A stretch of 52,202 bases of DNA from a phage, in NCBI GenBank assembly GCA_028524385.1, contig GCA_028524385.1_3661.2. One strand, 5' to 3'. This document shows positions 18,476 through 30,500 of the stretch, in pieces. Each line of letters opens with the position of its first letter. The stretch's first letter is position 1. The position numbers and the translations under genes are program-made. The notes below the pieces were generated by a model. It did not search any database. It saw only the letters and a list, made by a program, of their open reading frames with translations, and was not told the origin of the DNA.

Positions 18476-20454
18476 TTGTAAACAGTAATGAAACTAAAGC
18501 AGTACTAACCGGAAATATGGAGGTCACCAGGGGCTCAATTTCTCTGAACAAAGAGACTTTTGGGCTAATCATTAAAGGGATTTACGAAGATAAGGTGCTG
18601 GCAAGCTGCCGTGAACCAATCTTCAATGCTGTGGACTCCCATGTTGAGTCTGGACGGGGTGATGTACCGATCATCATTCACTCTCCTACAGACCTTGAAC
18701 CATACTTCTTTGTGCAGGACGTTGGATTGGGCATGTCGGAAGAGATGGTCCGCAACACTTTCATGAACCTCGGGGAGTCAACCAAGCGCAACAGCAACGC
18801 TCTGGTAGGTAATAAAGGTGTAGGTTCAAAGGCCCCGTTCAGCATGGTGGACACTTTCGATGTGATCAGTGTGCACAACGGTGTTGAAAGCACATATCTG
18901 TTGTTCTTGGATCAGGGTATCCCAAACGTTACCAAGATCCGCGAGCGAAAGACTGAAGAGCACAACGGGGTAAAAGTTCAGTTCCATGTTAAGAAAGAGC
19001 ATGTTCTGAAATATCGCACTGCTATTGCGTCATGCCTACGCTATGCAAAGTTTCCGTTTACCGTTACCGACCCTATGACCAGTAAGATGCTGGAAGGTGA
19101 CAAGGTTGAGGCGCAGTATCGCTACGAGAAAGATGGTTGGAAAATGACTATCCTGAAAGGTTATACCAGCTCTGATGAGAGCCGTGTGGTGATGGGACAC
19201 CAACCTTACCGCTCTAAGTTTCTGGAAACATTGACAGACTACCCTGCAATCTGTGTAGAGATCCCTATCGGGGATTGCAATATTAACCCTGGGCGCGAAT
19301 GGACCATAGAGGGGCACGACGATGGTGGATTCCAGGATCGCCTGGAGGCCTTTGTCAAAGAAGGTATACGTCTTCGTGGGGCAGAAGTTGTTGCGGAATT
19401 GGAGACAGCAAAAACATCCTCAGAAGCACGTGAGATGATGAAGAACAGTGGAGTGTTCGGACACATCTTCGGCAAAAACTTTATGTGGAACCGTTGGGAA
19501 GAAACAGGGCTTGGCGACTTAGGCGATTGTGAAATTTTCGCTGGCGGCTTAAATAAAGGCCGCATAGGCTATGCTCGTTACGGAAAGTCGGAGTTCTTAC
19601 GAGGTGTATACCTTGTATTTAACGACGGAGACGGCAAATATAACCGAAATAAGTGTAACTACTTAAGCGAGATCACCGGACGCAACGTTTTCTATTGCCG
19701 TAACACGGATCTGATGGAAGAGTTTAAAGAAGCGGCACACCACCCGTTCTTTGCAGATACGGTCAAATTGTTATCAGAGCTCCCTCGCCGTCCTGTAAAG
19801 AAAGGTGAAACAAAAACTCACTATGAGCCAGGGTATTGGGTTAAAAAACTTGAGAAAGATGGTTACTTCCGTCGTGAGCGTATTACTAAGGCAGAGTTCA
19901 AGAAGATTAAGCACTGCATTCCTTATGAGGGTGATATCCAACGTGGAAGTTGTTGGCTGGGACAGCTAAGTAACATCTACCAGCAAAATTATGACCGTGT
20001 GCGTGCGGCACTCCAGATTCCTGAAGGGGAAGATCTGTACCTGGTATCAGAATCTCGTCTGCTTTGGACTGATCCTGATTGCCAGTATGTTACAGAGAAA
20101 AATGTGGAACATTTGTTGAAAGAGGATGCCTGGAAATTCTTACTGACTCGCGCAGCAAATGAAACTTCATATGACAGCCTGTATAGACAATTAGGGAAAA
20201 TTATCCCCATGCAAGATTTTGGAAATTATCGGCCACATTTCCACAAGTGGGAAGGTAACACCGCGTGGAAGCACAGTGAGCTAAATCATCGTGCCAAAAT
20301 CTTAATCGCCAACCGAGTCAAGTGCGGGAAGGCCTATATTGCAAGATTGGAAAAGAAATATCCACTTTTGAAGCATGTGGGCTTGAAATATTGGGACACT
20401 CCTGCTATGATTGAATACCGTGAACTGATCGACGCAAAGAATAACACCAAATAA
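18472..20454 (+). CDS. GHKL-superfamily ATPase (Hsp90/MORC-like ATP-binding fold), function unknown
   Basis: N-box IFNAVDS, G1 box VQDVGLGMS, G2-like GNKGVGSKAPFSMVD in N-terminal 120 aa; 660 aa. Confidence 0.45.
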   Translation: MIVNSNETKAVLTGNMEVTRGSISLNKETFGLIIKGIYEDKVLASCREPIFNAVDSHVESGRGDVPIIIHSPTDLEPYFFVQDVGLGMSEEMVRNTFMNLGESTKRNSNALVGNKGVGSKAPFSMVDTFDVISVHNGVESTYLLFLDQGIPNVTKIRERKTEEHNGVKVQFHVKKEHVLKYRTAIASCLRYAKFPFTVTDPMTSKMLEGDKVEAQYRYEKDGWKMTILKGYTSSDESRVVMGHQPYRSKFLETLTDYPAICVEIPIGDCNINPGREWTIEGHDDGGFQDRLEAFVKEGIRLRGAEVVAELETAKTSSEAREMMKNSGVFGHIFGKNFMWNRWEETGLGDLGDCEIFAGGLNKGRIGYARYGKSEFLRGVYLVFNDGDGKYNRNKCNYLSEITGRNVFYCRNTDLMEEFKEAAHHPFFADTVKLLSELPRRPVKKGETKTHYEPGYWVKKLEKDGYFRRERITKAEFKKIKHCIPYEGDIQRGSCWLGQLSNIYQQNYDRVRAALQIPEGEDLYLVSESRLLWTDPDCQYVTEKNVEHLLKEDAWKFLLTRAANETSYDSLYRQLGKIIPMQDFGNYRPHFHKWEGNTAWKHSELNHRAKILIANRVKCGKAYIARLEKKYPLLKHVGLKYWDTPAMIEYRELIDAKNNTK

Positions 20455-20464
20455 GGAGACAGCT

Positions 20465-21670
20465 ATGATTTTCATCTACGAACATTTCAAAACTCGTAAA
20501 GAAGCACGCGACCGCCGTGCAGAACTTGAGAAGAAGGGTTTCACATGTGCTATTGAGAAAGGTACTACAACATGGACACTGGCAGTAGGTGCCCCAGAGC
20601 TGTTTGATCCTGACCGAGACAGTGTCTGCTATACCCGTGAGGATTTTGAAACCCGCGAAGAGGCACGTTTATTCCGCTACGGACTGGAAGACAACGGTAA
20701 GTACGCCATGATCTTAGATTCAGGTGAAGGTTCCGTTAAACGTTGGGGCGTGGTATACCCACTGTGTGTTGTTCACGGTGTGGGGTTCACTGGGGTAGCA
20801 ATCAAGTCAGAAGAACCTTTAGTAGAAGTCAAAGATCCGGTGCTGGAAGTGGTGAGCAGTGTGTCTCAGCAACAGTCTCGAAGCATCGAGCCTTTGGTAG
20901 TTATTTGCGGGGAACTCCTCCAGATCACCTGCAACGAAGGCATTTTTGAAATTCGCCGCAGCGAAAGTGAGGAAGTTTACCAGAAAGTCTTCGACCATAT
21001 TTCTGTTCAGGAATATGATGAGGCAATTGGTGAAATCCTTGTCTGGCTGGAACGCAAGAATGAGTTCACCACACTTGCAGACAACCTGATCATGAAAGAT
21101 GGTAAGCTCTACTACTACGGTGTAGAGATGCGATCCACCATTGCAAAGAAAATTGAGGAAGATTATGTAGATGGAACACTGGACGACCGATATGTTAAAT
21201 TCCTTGTCCGTCTGCTACGCAACCCGTCTGCAAAATCTGTGAACATGCTCTACGATTTCATGCAGGCTAATGACATCCAGGTTGCAGAAGATGGTCGAAT
21301 CATTTGCTATAAGGGGGTTCAGTTTAACGGGAGCAGGTGGGTGGATTGGCACAGCGGTAAAGTTCCACAATACCAGGGTGCTTTTGTGTCCATGCCTCGT
21401 AACTTTGTAGAAGATGATCCGGAAGCTGCGTGTTCTTATGGCCTGCACTGCGCCAGCAAAGAGTATGCAGCGGGCTATGGCACTGTAATGATGGTTATGG
21501 TTGACCCTGCGGATGTGGTTAGTGTGCCATACCAACACAACAGTGCTAAGTGCCGTGCATGCCGCTACGAAATCGTAGCAGCACCGGAATCACGCAAAGA
21601 TGGCGATCCGATTGAATACGTAGTTGACCGTGATGGTAACATCATCGACATTATCTACGAGGAGGCGTAA
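20465..21670 (+). CDS. hypothetical protein with N-terminal tandem repeats
   Basis: 401 aa; two about 35-aa repeats (TRKEARDRRAELEKKGF... / TREEARLFRYGLEDNGK...) at N-terminus; SD aaggag. Confidence 0.45.
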   Translation: MIFIYEHFKTRKEARDRRAELEKKGFTCAIEKGTTTWTLAVGAPELFDPDRDSVCYTREDFETREEARLFRYGLEDNGKYAMILDSGEGSVKRWGVVYPLCVVHGVGFTGVAIKSEEPLVEVKDPVLEVVSSVSQQQSRSIEPLVVICGELLQITCNEGIFEIRRSESEEVYQKVFDHISVQEYDEAIGEILVWLERKNEFTTLADNLIMKDGKLYYYGVEMRSTIAKKIEEDYVDGTLDDRYVKFLVRLLRNPSAKSVNMLYDFMQANDIQVAEDGRIICYKGVQFNGSRWVDWHSGKVPQYQGAFVSMPRNFVEDDPEAACSYGLHCASKEYAAGYGTVMMVMVDPADVVSVPYQHNSAKCRACRYEIVAAPESRKDGDPIEYVVDRDGNIIDIIYEEA

Positions 21671-23040
21671 TGGAAAAAGGGCAGTATGACGTAGGCACAG
21701 ATGCTGCCCTCATTGCAATCATGAGCGGTGAGAATGTCTTCGTTTCAGGACCTGCAGGTTGTGGGAAGACGTATCTCATCAACATGATCCAGTCAATGTA
21801 TGGAGACTCTTGCATAACGGTTGCCCCGACAGGGGTAGCCGCTTTAAACGTTAATGGAGCAACAGCACACCGAACATTCGATCTTGCAGCAGGTGTGAGC
21901 ATGGAGTCGGACTGGACTGCAATAAGGGCAAAAACAGCAAAGCCTTTGAAAAGCAAGGCATTTACCATCCTAATTATCGATGAAATCTCTATGATCCGTG
22001 CTGATAAGTTTATAGAGATGGATAGGAAACTCCGCTTCCTTCGAAAAAATGACAAACCTTTCGGAGGCATACAGGTCATATTGTTTGGCGATTTTTACCA
22101 AGCACCTCCTGTTGTCTCTTCTATGGAGAAGGAAGCCTACTTCAACTTCTACCATACGGACCTGTGTTGCTATACCGAATCTTGGAAAGAACTTGACCTC
22201 CACAACATAGCCCTAGTAGATCAGTTCCGACAGGAGTCTATTCGATTTGCCACAATGCTCAACTGTGTTCGTGAGGGTCGTCGCATAAAAGAGGTTGTAG
22301 CAGAACTTAATGCTCGTTGTTACAAAGGCGGTGTACCAACAGACGCTCTCACAATTTGCGCCACCAACAAACAAGCGGAGGAAGTGAACAGAAGGTTCTA
22401 TGATGCCATCAACGCCCCAGAAAAGGTATACACTGGTGAAATGAAGGGTAAGTTTCCCTCCACCCTGCCAGTTGAGCAGGAGATGAAGTTGAAAATTGGC
22501 ATGAAAGTTATGATAACCGCCAACGATGTTGACCCGACGCACAAAGTACCTTATTATGTTAACGGAACACGTGCCACAATTGTTAAATTTAAGAACAAGG
22601 CGGTGGTGGTAGAGCTTGAAGATGGAACACAGGTTGACATAGAACAGAGGTTGTGGGAGAATAACGAGTATAAGCCATCTCAAAGATACAACATTGCAGA
22701 AAGGAAGATGGAGAAGTTTATAGAGAGGGTAGTGATTGGATCATACAAGCAACTTCCTCTGAAATCTGGGTATGCCGTAACATCTCATAAAAGTCAAGGA
22801 CTTACGCTAGATTGTTACAACCTGGACCTTGGAAAGAACGGAGCTTTCTCTCCTGGGATGACGTATGTTGCTTTGAGTCGAGTTAAGACAATACAAGGGA
22901 TAAACTTGTTGCGTCCACTAAGAGAAGTTGATATTATTGTTGACCCGAGAGTCGTAGAGTTTTACAATACAACATTCCCTGACTTAGACAAAATTGTCAG
23001 GAAAGATTTTGAAACCAGAGCAGAAGAGGGGGACGTATGA
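21670..23040 (+). CDS. SF1B DNA helicase (Pif1/RecD/Dda-like)
   Basis: Walker A GPAGCGKT, motif II IIDEISM, motif III ILFGDFYQAPPV, motif V GYAVTSHKSQGLTLD, motif VI YVALSRV. Confidence 0.75.
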   Translation: MEKGQYDVGTDAALIAIMSGENVFVSGPAGCGKTYLINMIQSMYGDSCITVAPTGVAALNVNGATAHRTFDLAAGVSMESDWTAIRAKTAKPLKSKAFTILIIDEISMIRADKFIEMDRKLRFLRKNDKPFGGIQVILFGDFYQAPPVVSSMEKEAYFNFYHTDLCCYTESWKELDLHNIALVDQFRQESIRFATMLNCVREGRRIKEVVAELNARCYKGGVPTDALTICATNKQAEEVNRRFYDAINAPEKVYTGEMKGKFPSTLPVEQEMKLKIGMKVMITANDVDPTHKVPYYVNGTRATIVKFKNKAVVVELEDGTQVDIEQRLWENNEYKPSQRYNIAERKMEKFIERVVIGSYKQLPLKSGYAVTSHKSQGLTLDCYNLDLGKNGAFSPGMTYVALSRVKTIQGINLLRPLREVDIIVDPRVVEFYNTTFPDLDKIVRKDFETRAEEGDV

Positions 23041-23378
23041 GTTTGTGGAGAAATATAGTTAACTACGTGTGTGGCAATCCAACTCCTGAAGAGAAGGATG
23101 TTGTGATTCACGATTTTACTAAAAGATCTCGTGAAAAAGACCTACTGCTAACAAAGGTGACTGATAAAGATCCTGCAGTAGGGGACTGGGCAGGTTTTGC
23201 GTTTACATCGGACAAATACACCTTTAACAAAGGTGACTATCTTGTTGTAGATTTTAACGAAGACATTGATGGTGCTGAACCTTACTATCAGACCCTTATT
23301 ATTGCAGGGTGCGTTGATCTCTCTGCAGGCATGCACAGTTTGATTCTTTTTGAGCTTGACTCTGAAGACCTTCAGTAG
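23037..23378 (+). CDS. hypothetical protein
   Basis: 113-aa ORF, start overlaps helicase stop. Confidence 0.4.
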   Translation: MSLWRNIVNYVCGNPTPEEKDVVIHDFTKRSREKDLLLTKVTDKDPAVGDWAGFAFTSDKYTFNKGDYLVVDFNEDIDGAEPYYQTLIIAGCVDLSAGMHSLILFELDSEDLQ

Positions 23379-23438
23379 TAAGATGTTAGTCTAAAGGGGA
23401 GGCACTCCTCCCCACAAAAACTAAGGAAGCACTAAACG

Positions 23439-23741
23439 ATGAAACGTTATAAACCGTACACTTTTGAAATCGATTTCGAACTTGACGATATGTTTACTGT
23501 GGAAGCTCAAGCAGTTGTCCAGTTGCCAGACTCGGAGTGCCGTGACTCTGATGTTGACTATTACGGATTTAGACAAATTACCGATGTGCGTGTTTACCAC
23601 AACGGTGAAGAGGTGGACTTCCACCAACTGCCAAACGATATGCGCCACTCAATTTACAAACGTGCAGCCCGTGAACTAGAGTCCTATCTGGATGCAGCGA
23701 CGACAGCAGCTGCATTTGCTGAAGAAGTTGGAGGTTTCTGA
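23439..23741 (+). CDS. hypothetical protein
   Basis: 100-aa ORF preceded by GC hairpin, CA-rich leader and SD aaggaag. Confidence 0.45.
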   Translation: MKRYKPYTFEIDFELDDMFTVEAQAVVQLPDSECRDSDVDYYGFRQITDVRVYHNGEEVDFHQLPNDMRHSIYKRAARELESYLDAATTAAAFAEEVGGF

Positions 23742-24136
23742 TGATTACAGGTGTGAAGATTATCCAATACCACTTAACCAAATTAGAAGATGCTGAAAAA
23801 GAGCTTGCAGAAGTTCTGAATAGTGGATATACTTTGCTATCATGCGCCTGCTCAGATACCTACGCTGTGTGGACACTTATCCGGAAGGAAGAGCCTGCAT
23901 GGACCTTGGTGCCAAACCCTAAGATTATTAGTGAGGTGGATGACTACCCTCAGGACGGCCTACCAGAAGACTGGGAAGTATGGGAAGGTGGTGAAAACCC
24001 TGCACCAGGTAAGTGGGTAAAATATAAACTACGTGGTGGTGCACAGTACGCTGACTACTCTGATAACCTAGACTGGAGTCATTCTTCACTAGGATCGTCT
24101 GCAAGTTCATATGATATCGTTGCTTTTCAGGAATAA
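23741..24136 (+). CDS. hypothetical protein
   Basis: 131-aa ORF, overlapping stop/start. Confidence 0.4.
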   Translation: MITGVKIIQYHLTKLEDAEKELAEVLNSGYTLLSCACSDTYAVWTLIRKEEPAWTLVPNPKIISEVDDYPQDGLPEDWEVWEGGENPAPGKWVKYKLRGGAQYADYSDNLDWSHSSLGSSASSYDIVAFQE

Positions 24137-24148
24137 GGAGAAGGTGGT

Positions 24149-24631
24149 ATGTCAGATTTTATGTGGAAAGTTGGTTATTCCTCCCCTGAAATGTGTAAGG
24201 CCTGTTTTGTGAAAATAGGTCGCGAAGATATCGACAAAGTGATCCTTAAGTTTCGTGATGTGGCTGTGATCGGCAACCGAGTGCTTAAGCACTTAAAGAA
24301 TCTGAAGCTCACCAAAAAGAAATTCTTCGGACTTTTCGAAGAGAAAGTTGATGCTTGGACCCATTGCATTCAGGAAGCTAAATCTCACTACAGTGCTATC
24401 GTTACCCCAGAACGGGTAGCCAAGATGGAAGGACTCATCAACAGCACAGAGTTTGAGTGTCTGAAAGCTGCGCTCGATAGTTATCCGAAATGCCTCAAGC
24501 ACTTGGACAAGTATGTAGAAAAGGATGGGGAAATGTATCTCACCCTGGACGCATACTATGAGATGCAAGAAATTTTAAATTTAGATTTGACATTGGTATC
24601 CACCGAGTATACAATAGGTATCCGGGTTTAA
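24149..24631 (+). CDS. hypothetical protein
   Basis: 160-aa ORF with SD aaggag. Confidence 0.4.
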   Translation: MSDFMWKVGYSSPEMCKACFVKIGREDIDKVILKFRDVAVIGNRVLKHLKNLKLTKKKFFGLFEEKVDAWTHCIQEAKSHYSAIVTPERVAKMEGLINSTEFECLKAALDSYPKCLKHLDKYVEKDGEMYLTLDAYYEMQEILNLDLTLVSTEYTIGIRV

Positions 24632-24637
24632 CACTAG

Positions 24638-24665
24638 GCCCTGCCCGAAAGGGTGGGGCTTTTTG
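24638..24665 (+). terminator. intrinsic terminator
   Basis: gccctgccc-gaaa-gggtggggc followed by ttttt; same hairpin sequence reused at 36029. Confidence 0.7.
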
Positions 24666-24682
24666 CATTAGGAGACAGCAAA

Positions 24683-25447
24683 TTGAAATTTATCTACAAA
24701 GAACACTACCACAAAGGTGTTGTGTGGAGTCTATTTGACGGGTCTGGTGGTGCAGTCATTGACTGGGCAAAAGCTGGGTACCTGTGCCTGTGCTTTAATG
24801 CAGAAGGTGCTGATCACGGCAGTTATGCAGAGGTGATAACCGATCATCCCAACATTTACTATGTGGATTATTGGATTGACCCATGGTTCCCTCAGGAAAC
24901 TTTTTGCATGTACCCAGCTCCAGACTTTATTCTTGCATTTCCTCCGTGCACGCATTTAGCGGTATCAGGTGCTGCACATTTTAAGAAAAAGCTGGCTAAG
25001 GACCCTATGATCCAAATTAATGCTGTAAAGGATGCTCGGGTTGCGGAAGAGCTGGGAGAGATTTACGATTGCCCGTGGCATGTAGAGAATCCTGTAGGTG
25101 TTATGTCCACACTGTGGCGCAAACCTGATTACCGTTTTCATCCTTCTGACTATGGCGGGTATTTACCGGAGGATGATGTAAACCCTTGGTTTCCTGAATT
25201 TATAGCTCCACGCGATGCCTATCCAAAAATAACTTGCGGCTGGATAGGTAATGGATTTATAATCCCGGCCACAAAACCTGTCCCGCAAATAGTTGACGCG
25301 GTTAGCGGGTATTCCATGCAACACGCTAAGCTAGGTGGAAAAAGTGCAAGGACGAAGATGATTCGAAGCCTCACACCCCGTGGCTGGGCAAAAGCCGTAT
25401 TCTTAGCAAACGAGCCTGTAGTAAGGAGCAGAATTAATGGGAAGTAA
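24683..25447 (+). CDS. DNA C5-cytosine-methyltransferase-like protein (short, no obvious target-recognition domain)
   Basis: Motif I SLFDGSGG, motif IV FPPC with catalytic Cys, motif VI VENPVG in canonical order; likely TTG start at 24683 with SD aggaga (track start 24653 lies inside the terminator hairpin). Confidence 0.4.
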   Translation: MKFIYKEHYHKGVVWSLFDGSGGAVIDWAKAGYLCLCFNAEGADHGSYAEVITDHPNIYYVDYWIDPWFPQETFCMYPAPDFILAFPPCTHLAVSGAAHFKKKLAKDPMIQINAVKDARVAEELGEIYDCPWHVENPVGVMSTLWRKPDYRFHPSDYGGYLPEDDVNPWFPEFIAPRDAYPKITCGWIGNGFIIPATKPVPQIVDAVSGYSMQHAKLGGKSARTKMIRSLTPRGWAKAVFLANEPVVRSRINGK

Positions 25448-27515
25448 ATTTATGGCATCTGCATATAACCGTTTCGGTGAGCCAAACCCGAAAGCAACTA
25501 AGTATAAAAGTGGGGGAAGTGTGAAACGAGACTATCGTGATGAAAAAGAGGTTGAAACTGTAGAGACTGTTTTAGAAAATACTAAAATCGTCCCTGTCCC
25601 ACAACAAAATATCGGTCTGATGGCTGCACAATATTTTGGTGTGCGATCAGCATTGTCCCAAGAAGACGGTGTGACAGTTACTGCAACATATTTCCCATAT
25701 TACGACCGCTACGGGAATCTGTCCGGTTTCAAAAAGCGTGACTGGACGATCCCCAAAGAGCAACGTGGGCACTTTACGACGGTTGGGATCGTAAAGGCTA
25801 ACTCCCAAATGTTTGGGCAAAAGCTGTGTGCATCTTCTAACAACCGTAAGCAGATTAACGTTTGTGAGGGGGAAGGCGATGTTATTGCAGCATGGCAGGC
25901 TGCATATCAGATACAAGTAAAAGGGATTCTCACCAACGCTAAAGCCCCGGCAAAGGTGAAACAGTGGGCTAAAGAGGTCCAGGACGGGATCGATGCAGTT
26001 ATCAACGGGGGTGATCTGGCAGGAAAACCCTGCCTACCTTTTGTTGGAATTAACTGTGGATGTGCAAACGCAGTAGATACTTTTGCAAACAATGAGAAAT
26101 TTATCCGTAGCTACGGAACAGTGGTCCTTGCAATGGACAACGATGCAGCTAACGAGGTAGAGAAGCAAAAACACGTTATCAAAGGTGTTGAAGCCACACA
26201 TAATATCGCGGCATTTTTGATGGCTGATAACGTTTACCACGTGGAATACCCCAGCGAGGTAAACGACCCTGACGGTGTAAAAGATATCCGTGACATGCTG
26301 AAGGCTAAAAAGCTGGAAGATATTGTCAACATGTTCCGTCACCCAGTCAAATATGTGCCCGATGCTGTATCTGATTTAGAAGACTTCTCCATTGAATCTC
26401 TTCGTAAGAAGACTTCTAATGGCGTAGATATCAGCGCGGAGTTCCCTAAATTGCAGAAGATGCTGAAAGGACTCCACAAAGGCACCTTGATGATGCTGAC
26501 AGGCCCATCTGGCGGTGGTAAAACAACTGTAGCCAAGAAACTAGAGCACTGCATTGCAAAATACTTGATGGATCCGACATGCCCTAAAGCCGATGATTAT
26601 GAAGAGGATGATCGCCTGTGTCTGATTCACCTTGAAGAGGACCCTGAGGAAGCAATTAACTCTCTATACGCCAACCAGTTGGGGTTTGATGTTAAAGAGT
26701 TTGTTGAAGACCCTAGTCAGTTCCTGACTGATCAGGAGCATGCTGAGATTCACCAATCTTGGGCCAAGGCTGGAAAAATCAAAGTGTTCAAGCATTTTGG
26801 GTCTATTCCTGTAGATGAGTTGATCACTAAGCTTAAACAAATGGTGTGTCTGTATCACTGCCGTTATATTGTGCTGGATCACCTGTCCATGGTAATTTCA
26901 GGGCTTAATGTTAAGGATGAGCGCAAAGAACTTGACATGGCTATGACGCAACTAGCCGCGTTCTGTAAGCAGTTTAATGTATTTATCTTGGTGATCGCTC
27001 ACCTGAAACGCACAGAGATTGTGCCTCCAAAGGACAAGGATGGGAATCCGTTACCTTTTTGGTATCCTGTACGAAAAGAGAACCTTCGGGGTAGTGCCGG
27101 ATTGGAGCAACTTAGCTGGGTAGTTGTTGGGGTGGAGGCAGAAGAGATGGTGGATCGTTCCCGTGGACGTGTCCGACTGGTAGGTCTTAAAAACCGCCCA
27201 GCAAAAACGTTAGGCATTGCGGATACCTTAGTTATGGATCCCCACACAGGTAAGTTCCATGATGCCAGCAACTGGTACTGGGACAAAGAAATGCAGATGT
27301 TCACAGACGGCGAAGGTGGGGAGGTTGTTTGGAGACCTCAAGCTATGTTTGAGGATCAAGAGCACGCAGTTGTAGAAACACCTGTAGGTAGGGTTGTGGC
27401 TGATAAGGTTGTAACTCCTACTGTTAACCCTGTTGACACACAAGAAGACCTTCCGTATGATGATCCGTCCTCTGACCCTGTTCCAGGTTTTGAAGACGAT
27501 GAAACACCTTTTTAA
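25437..27515 (+). CDS. primase-helicase (TOPRIM primase + DnaB-like helicase, T7 gp4-like architecture)
   Basis: TOPRIM EGEGD and MDND motifs in N-terminal half; Walker A GPSGGGKTT and RecA-like helicase core in C-terminal half; acidic C-terminal tail ending DDETPF. Confidence 0.65.
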   Translation: MGSKFMASAYNRFGEPNPKATKYKSGGSVKRDYRDEKEVETVETVLENTKIVPVPQQNIGLMAAQYFGVRSALSQEDGVTVTATYFPYYDRYGNLSGFKKRDWTIPKEQRGHFTTVGIVKANSQMFGQKLCASSNNRKQINVCEGEGDVIAAWQAAYQIQVKGILTNAKAPAKVKQWAKEVQDGIDAVINGGDLAGKPCLPFVGINCGCANAVDTFANNEKFIRSYGTVVLAMDNDAANEVEKQKHVIKGVEATHNIAAFLMADNVYHVEYPSEVNDPDGVKDIRDMLKAKKLEDIVNMFRHPVKYVPDAVSDLEDFSIESLRKKTSNGVDISAEFPKLQKMLKGLHKGTLMMLTGPSGGGKTTVAKKLEHCIAKYLMDPTCPKADDYEEDDRLCLIHLEEDPEEAINSLYANQLGFDVKEFVEDPSQFLTDQEHAEIHQSWAKAGKIKVFKHFGSIPVDELITKLKQMVCLYHCRYIVLDHLSMVISGLNVKDERKELDMAMTQLAAFCKQFNVFILVIAHLKRTEIVPPKDKDGNPLPFWYPVRKENLRGSAGLEQLSWVVVGVEAEEMVDRSRGRVRLVGLKNRPAKTLGIADTLVMDPHTGKFHDASNWYWDKEMQMFTDGEGGEVVWRPQAMFEDQEHAVVETPVGRVVADKVVTPTVNPVDTQEDLPYDDPSSDPVPGFEDDETPF

Positions 27516-27573
27516 TGTTTAACCAAGAGTGGGAGGGGTAGTACAACCGCCTCCCCTTTAAGGAGAACTGTAT

Positions 27574-30500
27574 ATGAGCATGTGGTCTTTCGATTTTGAG
27601 TCATCCGGTTTGCTGGAAGACCCAGATCTTTATTATCACTGCGGCCTGTTTAAAGAGCTGAATAAGAACCGTTTTATGCTGTTCCTTCCTCTAAATGACC
27701 GCACACACTACTCTGAAGAGGATATAGAGAAGGCTAAGAACTTTATTCTGGCAAAGAAAACTCTTTATAAAGATTTTGAAGTTCGCATAGCAGATTTTTC
27801 AGAGTTGGAAGGTTGGCTTACAGGAAATTCTGACTGGTCACCCACAGCTTTGAACTGCCACAACTGCTACAGCTACGACTTTATGCTGATGGAGAGATTG
27901 TCCGGTATTCATTTTGATATGTTCCGTGACCCTAAGTGTATGGGGACTATCAACGACCACCAGGTTAATCTGTTTGATACGTTGGCGATGAGCCGAATCT
28001 TGTGGCCTGATCGCCCTTTACCAAAAGGTTGTCCGGACTCTGTATTCAACCCGGTTACTAAGAAAATGCAGCCTGTTGGTCCTCACGGCCTTATGGCATG
28101 GGGCTACGCCCTTGGTAACCAGAAAGTTCAAATTGATGACTGGCGCGATCTTCCGTTGTGGAAGTATGTGGATCGTGTATTCGAGGACGTTATCATCCAG
28201 GAGCTGCTCTGGAAAGAGCTGGTAGCGGAATCAAAAGGTGTATTCTACGGCAAATCTGACATGCAGAACTTTATGTACGATCCAGCCAAAGAGAAGCCGA
28301 AAGGGTTCAAGAAGATCACCTGGAAGAACGCACTACGTCGAGGCATGCTGCAGCACTTCCTGATGGAGCTGCAGGCCCGTCAGGGTGTATACTTCGACAT
28401 AGATGGAGCTATTGCTTTACGTGACCGTTGCGATGCGTGGATGAAAGAAATCGCTGATCGTGTTGAACCACAACTACCTTTAAAAGAGCTGTCAATGTCT
28501 CAGCGGCCCAAGTTCCCTGAAAAGCCGTTTAACCAAGACGGGACAATCTCTAATAATGGTTGGAAATGGTTAAAAGATAAGCTTGGCTATCCTGTAGACA
28601 TGAGCGCTTTAGATTTCAAAGCCCCGCCTAAGCGAGCATTTACCTCTACAGGAGATGTCAGCAAGATGGGGATAAAATGGTGTGAAGAGATGGGCTGCAA
28701 AGACCCCGATAAGATGGCTGATTTCTTGAGAGGCTATATTAAGGGCACTTCCACACCTCACCCTTTGCCTAAAGAGCTGATGGATCAGGCAATAAGTGAT
28801 CTACAGCAGAAGCGAATGCCGGACTGCAAGATACCTATGAAAATCAGCAATCAGGACGACATTAAGCGGTATCTGATCAGTGCTGGCTGGCTACCGACAA
28901 TGTGGAGAACTAAGGATGTAACTAAAGATAGCAAGAAGAAAGCTCTACCTGATGCGGATGTTGATGCACGAGTATATGCATATATGGACGAGCTTTTAGA
29001 GTCAGAGTATTGTGACCTGATTATCAACTTCTGGAACAAAACTGATGCCAAGTTCCAGACAACTGTGCACAAGTTCCGAAGCTTTCCTAACTCTGAAAGG
29101 ATTAAAAAGGAAGTATTCGGGAAAATACGTAGAAAAGCCAGAGCACTTATTACTTCTCCGCAACTGAAAGATACGTTTGGACACCTGTGTCCGAATCTTG
29201 AAAAATTGAACGGAGAGATGGCTAAAGATATCGTCTTGTGGTTATCATTGCGAAACCGCAGATCAGTCCTTGATCCAATCAAGGAGGATAAGGTTGATAC
29301 TGGTCTTCTTAATCACCCACGTTTGAAGATTGACCATAAGCTTCCTGCTAAAAGCTCTGGATTAACAAACACTTCCAGACAGAAACACAGTATTTGTGCA
29401 AACATGCCTAAACCATCCCCTAAAGTGGTTATGGGTAAAGAGATGCGCAGTCTGTGGGGTGTTCCTCCTGGATACTTTCAGATCGGTATTGACGGGTCCA
29501 ACTTAGAGCAGCTTATCGGGGCTTGGGGTGCCTTTGAGTTCGACAACGGCCTGTATTACGATGTTGTAAGTAACGGCGATGCACATTGTTATTCAGGAGA
29601 TACACAAATTCTCACGGAGAAAGGGTGGGTGAGGTTTGAAGATCTTGATCCGGGAACACAAGTGTTCCAGTACGATCACAACACCTCGTCAATGAACCTT
29701 GTTACTCCATTAAATTACGTTAAGCGTAGTTATTATGGAGATATGTATCATTTCCACAACAGTAGTGTGGATTTTATGGTTACAGATCAACACAGGATGC
29801 TGACTGTGGATCACAGAAGCAATAAATTGTTTGAAGATTTGGCAAAAGACCTGAAAGCAGGTAAAGGGTCTAATTCAGGAAGAAGGTTTATCCATGCGGC
29901 AGAGTTTTATGGGAATACAGCCTTATCTCCTGCCCAGGTTAATTTGCTTATTGCTATTCACGATGATGGGCACTTGCATACAAATAAGGACGGCAGCATC
30001 GTGTGCAGGATTCAGGTCGGAAAGGGAAGAAAAGTTGCAACGCTTTTAGATACTTTTTCTGCTCTAAGCCTTAGTTATGTAGAGCAGAGCGGGAAAACCA
30101 CAAAAGGAGGCTTACTGGCGAGAAGGTTCCAATTCCACGTTCCGTCTTGGGTATTTGAGTTTTTGGACAGCAATAAGGATTTCACCTACAACCTGATGAA
30201 CCTTGATAAAGAATCTAAAAACCTGTTTATAGCTTCTTTATCTAACTGGGACGGGTGGGTATCTTCAGAAGGTGGAAAGGTTGCTTACTACTCCCAGGCC
30301 GAGTGTAGGAAGAAATCTGTAGAGGTGGTGTCTGCGCTGGCTACTCAGTGTGGTTTACGGAATAATACGGTGGCGATTCACAAAAAAGGTCGTGCCGTGC
30401 AGCACAGAATCACAATTGGTAGCAAACAGAGAGCAGGGTTGCTGACACTATCTAAAGAGTCTGTCGAGGTGAGCGGTTCTTTGGTTTATTGCGTTACCGT

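Follow-up and report, generated by a model that had tools for sequence, protein, structure and literature searches.

A compact Dcm-like protein encoded ahead of the primase-helicase gene of an rV5-like phage is very probably an orphan DNA cytosine-C5 methyltransferase

The phage contig GCA_028524385.1_3661.2 was analysed as a single stretch of 52,202 nucleotides, which we call the window, and carries at 24683–25447 (+ strand) a gene that very probably encodes an orphan S-adenosylmethionine (AdoMet)-dependent DNA cytosine-C5 methyltransferase (C5-MTase) of the compact, Dcm-like phage family PHROG 757. The assignment rests on homology, on conserved catalytic residues and on the predicted fold; from these, and by analogy with a homologue studied at the bench, we infer that the window protein itself is probably active. 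The gene belongs to an already known family, widely annotated in phages and with one experimentally studied member. The gene and its catalytic motifs are located as follows:

24683–25447, + strand: coding sequence of the Dcm-like C5-MTase, 254 aa, with a TTG start and a TAA stop (25445–25447)
24728–24751, + strand: motif I, SLFDGSGG (aa 16–23), the FxGxG AdoMet-binding loop
24938–24949, + strand: motif IV, FPPC (aa 86–89), with Cys89 as the predicted catalytic nucleophile
25082–25099, + strand: motif VI, VENPVG (aa 134–139), an ENP variant of ENV, paired by hhalign with the ENV of M.HhaI

A first-pass annotation, made from the sequence alone, had pointed to these three motifs in canonical order within a short protein, and this reading is borne out: the protein has 254 aa, and motifs I, IV and VI follow one another, in that order, within 139 aa. 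Conservation was computed on two sets, an alignment of 121 homologues and a group of 109 deep representatives of 205–290 aa. In motif I, which hhalign also aligns with motif I of M.HhaI, F18, G20, S21 and G22 are kept in at least 90% of the first set, and the motif is less conserved in the second. P87, P88 and C89 of motif IV are invariant in the 121 homologues, with C89 kept in 95% of the deep representatives; E135, N136 and P137 of motif VI are likewise invariant in the former and kept in 98, 91 and 98% of the latter, respectively. Also invariant in the 121-sequence alignment are N39, H45, K103, K182, W187, G218, G219, R228, S229, P232 and R233, and six positions exceed 90% in the deep representatives, namely K182 (93%), Y180, W187, R228, P232 and G234. 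The SLFDG of motif I is presumably identical to that of DNMT3A, with whose motif I hhalign aligns it too.

The motifs are far beyond chance, and such conservation is what one would expect of a working enzyme rather than of a fold that has decayed or taken on another role. A repurposed fold had been envisaged at first pass. A catalytically inactive or repurposed methyltransferase fold, for instance in a DNA-binding or anti-defence protein, would agree with the loss of recognisable motifs VIII–X and of the recognition domain, and with the lack of a Pfam-level match; it sits badly with a Cys nucleophile, an ENP glutamate and an AdoMet loop strongly conserved across hundreds of clusters, and with a homologue that is active and whose active-site mutant is dead. 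We found no support for this explanation and regard it as very improbable.

A profile search, proposed at first pass as a check, matched PHROG 757 (“DNA methyltransferase”) with an E-value of 1.2e-85 over the full length of the protein (residues 2–251 on profile positions 5–226 of 247), and the motifs of the family (CFNxxxxDHG, AFPPCT, ENP, DAYPK and IRSLTPRG) are all present and aligned in the 254 aa of the window protein. The Pfam profile PF00145, though not matched by the window protein itself, was touched at E ≤ 1 by 74 of 121 close relatives; among eight relatives rescanned individually, P0053, P0071 and P0072 scored 24.7–28.5 bits, above the gathering threshold of 22 bits. In relatives, this match is restricted to profile positions 4–94 of 324, that is, to motifs I–IV. 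One of the three, P0072 (236 aa, with C82, E128, K175 and K176), was considered as the phage K42 protein described below, an identification that was rejected when it proved to be a Salmonella-phage relative.

Between 20 and 30 kb, the window is 98.7% identical to Escherichia phage vB_EcoM-Pr121LW and 92–98% identical to many other Vequintavirus (rV5-like) phages. The Pr121LW counterpart, 99.2% identical, carries the annotation “DNA cytosine methyltransferase” and occupies the same place ahead of the replicative helicase and family A polymerase. Far beyond this genus, tblastn retrieved homologues in 1,506 phage genomes (phages of Escherichia, Klebsiella, Salmonella, Shigella and others), including T1-like Drexlerviridae, Vequintavirinae and phAPEC8-like phages, many of them annotated as Dcm-like or C-5 cytosine methylase. 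In a large protein collection, we counted 3,544 homologous clusters at E ≤ 1e-3, and an exhaustive search found 1,025 among the 50%-identity representatives. Among the matches listed, 109 of 150 representatives are 205–290 aa long, the remainder being mostly shorter fragments; the small size is therefore a property of the family and not a truncation.

Many Vequintavirus relatives (among them JEP1, VB-EcoM-WM, NHEP1, BASEL CarlMeissner, ime and nimi) align to positions 20000–30000 of the window in two parts and have an additional 1.3 kb or so. The annotation of this additional sequence is that of an N6-adenine or type III-like methyltransferase, a second methyltransferase that is found neither in the window nor in Pr121LW.

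The experimentally studied member of the family is the Dcm of phage K42, a KarlJaspers strain. In KarlJaspers (MZ501090), the gene bas06_0055 (711 bp, 236 aa, “Dcm-like C5 cytosine methyltransferase”) encodes a protein 54% identical to the window protein over its full length (E 4e-87). K42 phages that escape the retron Ec86 all have lesions in the 711-bp dcm gene, whose expression is toxic only when this retron is present; moreover, liquid chromatography coupled to mass spectrometry (LC-MS) revealed high levels of 5-methylcytosine (5mC) on the retron's multicopy single-stranded DNA (msDNA) with wild-type K42 Dcm, not with a C82A/E128A/K175A/K176A mutant (Wang et al., bioRxiv 10.1101/2023.08.16.553469). 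A later paper treats K42 Dcm as the accepted trigger of retron Eco1 (PMC12916289). C82, E128 and K175 of the K42/KarlJaspers enzyme align with C89, E135 and K182 of the window protein, and K176 with I183, a position that is not conserved. The 5mC activity of the family is thus demonstrated for a homologue, and the presence here of residues mutated there (C82, E128, K175) supports the activity of the window protein. The role in DNA modification or anti-restriction put forward at first pass gains support from this homologue, which makes 5mC in vivo (10.1101/2023.08.16.553469). The same data speak against a DNMT2-like RNA methyltransferase that would place m5C on tRNAs of the host or the phage, as the substrate methylated by the homologue in vivo is DNA (msDNA); so does the location of the gene within the replication module in unrelated phage families. 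We consider a tRNA substrate the least probable of the explanations weighed here.

Structure prediction, another of the checks suggested at the outset, also returned a C5-MTase catalytic-domain fold. The AlphaFold2 model, built on the 121-sequence alignment, is a compact single domain with a mean predicted local distance difference test (pLDDT) of 91.0 and a predicted template modelling score of 0.90. Foldseek against the PDB placed the DNMT3A/3B catalytic domains (e.g., 6U8P and 5YX2) and the prophage methyltransferase 3G7U on top (E about 1e-6); among predicted viral structures, the best matches were family members named cytosine methylases, along with other methylase-like phage proteins of 200–250 aa. 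By our reading of its secondary structure against the topology of M.HhaI, the compactness of the model has three sources: it has no helix following strand 2 and none following motif VI, a link of fewer than 45 residues separates the last core strand (184–189) from the C-terminal helix (233–253), and there is no separate small domain.

Two of the matches in BFVD, A0A6J5SE15 (1,397 aa) and A0A6J5NPY6 (1,126 aa), both from uncultured phages, have the compact methyltransferase fold as part of far larger proteins. One of the two is annotated “Helicase/UvrB, N-terminal”, which recalls the helicase neighbourhood of the gene in the window.

The C-terminal half is where the family departs from canonical enzymes, and three segments can be delimited in it:

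25142–25249, + strand: family-specific conserved segment, aa 154–189 (PSDYGGYLPEDDVNPWFPEFIAPRDAYPKITCGWIG), with P154, L161, D178, Y180, K182 and W187 invariant
25250–25330, + strand: short variable stretch, aa 190–216, all that occupies the position of the canonical target-recognition domain
25331–25399, + strand: C-terminal conserved motif, aa 217–239 (LGGKSARTKMIRSLTPRGWAKAV), with G218, G219, R228, S229, P232 and R233 invariant

The first of these, including Lys182, is a candidate element for contacts with DNA and the target base. The second is the least conserved part of the protein, contains indels and has the lowest pLDDT (blocks of 74–84). In the third, R228, P232 and G234 are each kept in at least 91% of the deep representatives. 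The recognition domain of M.HhaI spans about 80 aa; neither the alignments nor the AlphaFold2 model revealed a separate target-recognition domain between motifs VIII and IX. As the enzyme is made up solely of a Rossmann-type catalytic domain, with no separate recognition domain, its DNA contacts would have to come from the family-specific conserved loops (aa 154–189, including Lys182, and aa 190–233), presumably much as in the DNMT3 catalytic domain.

For comparison with canonical enzymes, we aligned the family by hhalign, profile to profile, with 80 diverse canonical C5-MTases from viral contigs, 30–54% identical to M.HhaI. The alignment is colinear: motif I, PC and ENV/ENP correspond, “DYGG” falls on the “DYGIPQ” of M.HhaI, where motif VIII begins, and “IRSLTPRG” is paired with “iRkLTprE”, the consensus of motif IX. 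The alignment is also weak, with probabilities of 10–17% and E-values of 1.5e-3 to 3e-3. The pairing of “IRSLTPRG” with motif IX (RxLTxxE; E 1.5e-3 and probability 17% against 81 canonical viral C5-MTases) is the only match with detectable, if weak, resemblance in the C-terminal half, and hhalign of the family against the single sequences of M.HhaI or DNMT3A confidently aligned motifs I–IV only. The earlier statement that motifs VIII–X and a recognition domain could not be identified thus holds for QxRxR, for GN and for the recognition domain, next to a weak motif IX-like match.

A series of results weighs against an active enzyme of the Dcm type. With the cut-off relaxed to E ≤ 10, scans of Pfam, NCBIfam and PADLOC still gave no match for the window protein, and no related solved structure emerged from phmmer or from a family-profile search of PDB sequences; a ciliary protein, the lone phmmer match in the PDB (E 0.05), was judged spurious. 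The C-terminal 100 aa align only weakly to canonical enzymes. The canonical QxRxR of motif VIII was not found in the window protein, a conserved loop of about 23 aa (L161...Y180-P-K182) taking its place, and the basic K182 may stand in for its role. The GN of motif X was not found in the profile alignments either; its part could be played by “LGGKS”, which falls on the “LLGRSW” of DNMT3A in a low-stringency alignment (the DNMT3A C-terminal sequence was confirmed), or by “RSLTP” and the helix that follows, which resemble “GRSWSVP” and its helix in DNMT3A. Turning to function, literature searches found no methylome or restriction data for rV5-like or T1-like phages with this gene and no experiment on an rV5-like orthologue, and in the BASEL study the methyltransferases carried by Drexlerviridae phages showed no link to their resistance to restriction. 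As for specificity, CCWGG was assumed in the K42 study by analogy with host Dcm; in addition, 5mC was low on the control msDNA from MG1655, and the retron did not trigger itself (10.1101/2023.08.16.553469). MG1655, the host used there, carries dcm, and a dcm+ host with so little 5mC on its msDNA fits poorly with a specificity identical to that of host Dcm, a point that the paper leaves undiscussed.

This last point leads to an active 5mC methyltransferase with a target other than the C(m5C)WGG of host Dcm. The enzyme may read another motif, perhaps a shorter one, or may prefer DNA that is single-stranded, in hairpins or at forks, and its protection would then be broader than assumed, or different. 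We hold this to be possible, if clearly the less favoured view. It draws on the position of the recognition domain, where only about 45 poorly conserved residues are found, on the best structural match being DNMT3, which reads only CpG, and on the msDNA of dcm+ MG1655, which had little 5mC until the phage enzyme was expressed (10.1101/2023.08.16.553469). On the other side, changes to the CCTGG site of the msDNA abolished defence against K42 (10.1101/2023.08.16.553469), even though these site mutants could equally have disturbed effector binding; furthermore, the putative DNA-contact loops are strongly conserved family-wide, which suggests one defined target.

Pushed further, the PHROG 757 enzymes would form a minimal type of C5-methyltransferase, little more than a catalytic core, the recognition domain being almost absent and canonical motifs VIII and X missing, and their target or chemistry may differ from the assumed host-Dcm-like C(m5C)WGG. 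We advance this generalisation as doubtful. Such enzymes might read a much shorter or different motif, prefer hairpin or fork DNA, or use host carboxy-S-adenosylmethionine (Cx-SAM) by way of a basic residue replacing the motif X Asn. If true, the idea would explain why the phage enzyme, and not host Dcm, triggers retron Ec86.

The use of Cx-SAM has a precedent in CmoX, which picks this cofactor through an Arg replacing the motif X Asn, N304 in M.HhaI (PMC12783734). A CmoX-like DNA cytosine-C5 carboxymethyltransferase would take Cx-SAM from host CmoA and make 5-carboxymethylcytosine (5cxmC) instead of or besides 5mC. It is true that PHROG 757 lacks GN and has conserved basic residues in both segments that may stand in for motif X (K220 in the 121-sequence alignment and R228 throughout), that E. 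coli makes Cx-SAM (cmoA is present), and that 5mC was the sole product assayed in the K42 study. Nevertheless, 5mC was detected with the homologue, the signature SPPC is FPPC here, PHROG 757 is not among the reported CmoX candidates (PMC12783734), and neither a cmoA nor a ligase gene turned up in the 52-kb window. A second, canonical C5-MTase was sought in the window and not found. Nor is a basic residue diagnostic: DNMT3A has Gly-Arg-Ser where M.HhaI has Gly-Asn-Ser (DNMT3A sequence confirmed), the Arg occupying the place of the motif X Asn, and depends on SAM. All in all, a carboxymethyltransferase seems highly unlikely.

Coming back to the orphan AdoMet-dependent C5-MTase that we favour, the conserved residues and the fold lead us to propose the following mechanism. 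As in all C5-MTases, the target cytosine would be flipped out of the helix; Cys89 (motif IV, PPC) would attack C6 while Glu135 (motif VI, ENP) would protonate N3; the methyl group would then be transferred from AdoMet held by the motif I loop (FDGSG), by Asn39 or the acidic residue after strand 2, and by Asp66 of “WID”, before beta-elimination would free the 5mC DNA. Since the gene is likely expressed with the replication module, the enzyme would probably methylate newly replicated phage DNA and thereby shield it from 5mC-sensitive restriction in hosts without the matching methylation, a protective role that we infer in the same way as the target sequence, presumed to be CCWGG as in EcoRII-type systems. 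As a side effect, such an enzyme may be sensed by retron Ec86/Eco1.

The window contains 117 CCWGG sites, 0.91 times the Markov expectation and 1.7 times that from base composition. This abundance fits protection rather than site avoidance; it is no proof of methylation.

Several 4-bp palindromes are below the Markov expectation in the whole window (GTAC 0.62, CCGG 0.73, ACGT 0.80 and GGCC 0.82), GATC (1.00) not being one of them. Their under-representation may reflect restriction avoidance at sites that the phage cannot methylate.

The gene had been placed between a terminator and the primase-helicase, and its surroundings agree with this:

24636–24661, with a T-run to 24666, + strand: terminator-like hairpin directly upstream of the methyltransferase gene, 11-bp stem
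24670–24674, + strand: Shine-Dalgarno sequence AGGAG, read from the sequence, 8 nt ahead of the TTG start
25437–27515, + strand: downstream primase-helicase gene (PHROG 239, E 6e-159; DnaB_C/AAA_25)

According to the listing of open reading frames (ORFs), the sole long ORF on the + strand at this locus extends from 24653 to 25447. The TTG at 24683 is the credible start for the methyltransferase gene, because AGGAG lies 8 nt upstream, the hairpin comes just before, and the relatives with 99% and 80% identity have concordant lengths of 254 and 253 aa. The hairpin has a predicted free energy of −22.8 kcal/mol (z −2.6) and is kept in a relative with 79% identity. Downstream, the ATG of the primase-helicase gene (25437) falls within the methyltransferase gene, so that the two genes share 11 nt (25437–25447), and a similar overlap with the same gene order is seen in phages Pr121LW and L127. 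This suggests translational coupling of the two genes, and co-expression of the methyltransferase with the replication module is therefore likely.

Upstream of the hairpin, within the 3' end of the ORF at 24149–24631, we noted a near-consensus sigma-70 promoter, TTGACA-17-TACAAT (11 of 12 positions; region 24587–24666, + strand). The terminator-like hairpin starts about 20 nt past it, and a transcript from this promoter would reach the hairpin at about +14. Both elements are kept in the relative with the 79%-identical methyltransferase, where one T-to-C change turns a G-U pair into G-C. The arrangement could be an attenuator or a 5' stabilising stem.

We also searched the upstream ORFs for a separately encoded recognition or motif IX–X subunit; they belong to no informative family and none is shared with KarlJaspers. 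A split enzyme whose recognition or motif IX–X parts are supplied in trans was accordingly rejected, no partner gene being conserved between the window phage and KarlJaspers. The ORF at 23439–23741 (+ strand, 100 aa), of unknown function (PHROG 4240), has a weak second match to PHROG 1573, “DNA methyltransferase” (E 2e-4, profile positions 56–133 of 138), and may be a small domain that often accompanies methyltransferases. In KarlJaspers, tblastn gave it a marginal match only (E 0.009), away from the dcm gene.

One has to bear in mind that annotating such a gene is routine: an orphan cytosine methyltransferase beside replication genes is found in rV5-like phages, as it is in T1-like phages and in many phages of Klebsiella and Salmonella. 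Enzymes of this kind can guard phage DNA against restriction enzymes sensitive to 5mC, and can expose the phage to retron Ec86/Eco1, a matter of relevance to host range when phages are used in therapy. The remaining interest lies in the specificity of so small an enzyme and in how it recognises its target, a matter that is family-wide and not particular to the window. If well characterised, an enzyme of this size might serve as a tool.

How the window protein stands among known enzymes can now be considered. Its closest structural matches, the DNMT3A/DNMT3B catalytic domains (6U8P, 5YX2), are just 12–17% identical in sequence; in them, unlike in the window protein, motifs VIII, IX and X can still be recognised, and a loop of about 50 aa serves for recognition. 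DNMT3 functions as an oligomer, together with regulatory domains, and its target is CpG. We claim no evolutionary closeness to DNMT3 past the C5-MTase superfamily. E. coli Dcm and M.EcoRII methylate CCWGG; Dcm has 472 aa, a full recognition domain and a DNA_meth_N domain, and its match to PF00145 (3.9e-77) spans 320 of the 324 profile positions, whereas the window protein has 254 aa and no PF00145 match. The name “Dcm-like” is thus an annotation habit, not a statement of orthology. Compared with M.HhaI, the window protein lacks QxRxR, the GN of motif X and a separate small domain, and, by our reading of the secondary structure, counterparts of helices alpha-B and alpha-D are missing from its model; the profile alignment with M.HhaI is statistically weak (probability below 20%, E 1e-3). 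CmoX of Synechococcus phage S-B43 (PDB 8YF3) is larger, with PDB chains of 333–372 aa, has SPPC and R350, and in phages usually adjoins CmoA and a ligase (PMC12783734). With regard to KarlJaspers Dcm, the window protein comes from a myovirus (Vequintavirus) and not from a Drexlerviridae siphovirus, has about 10 extra residues at the N-terminus and about 10 at the C-terminus, and carries Ile183 in place of K176; its gene precedes the primase-helicase, whereas the KarlJaspers gene lies among small hypothetical genes, and the neighbours are not shared. These differences notwithstanding, the K42/KarlJaspers enzyme is, like the window protein, a compact single-domain member of PHROG 757.

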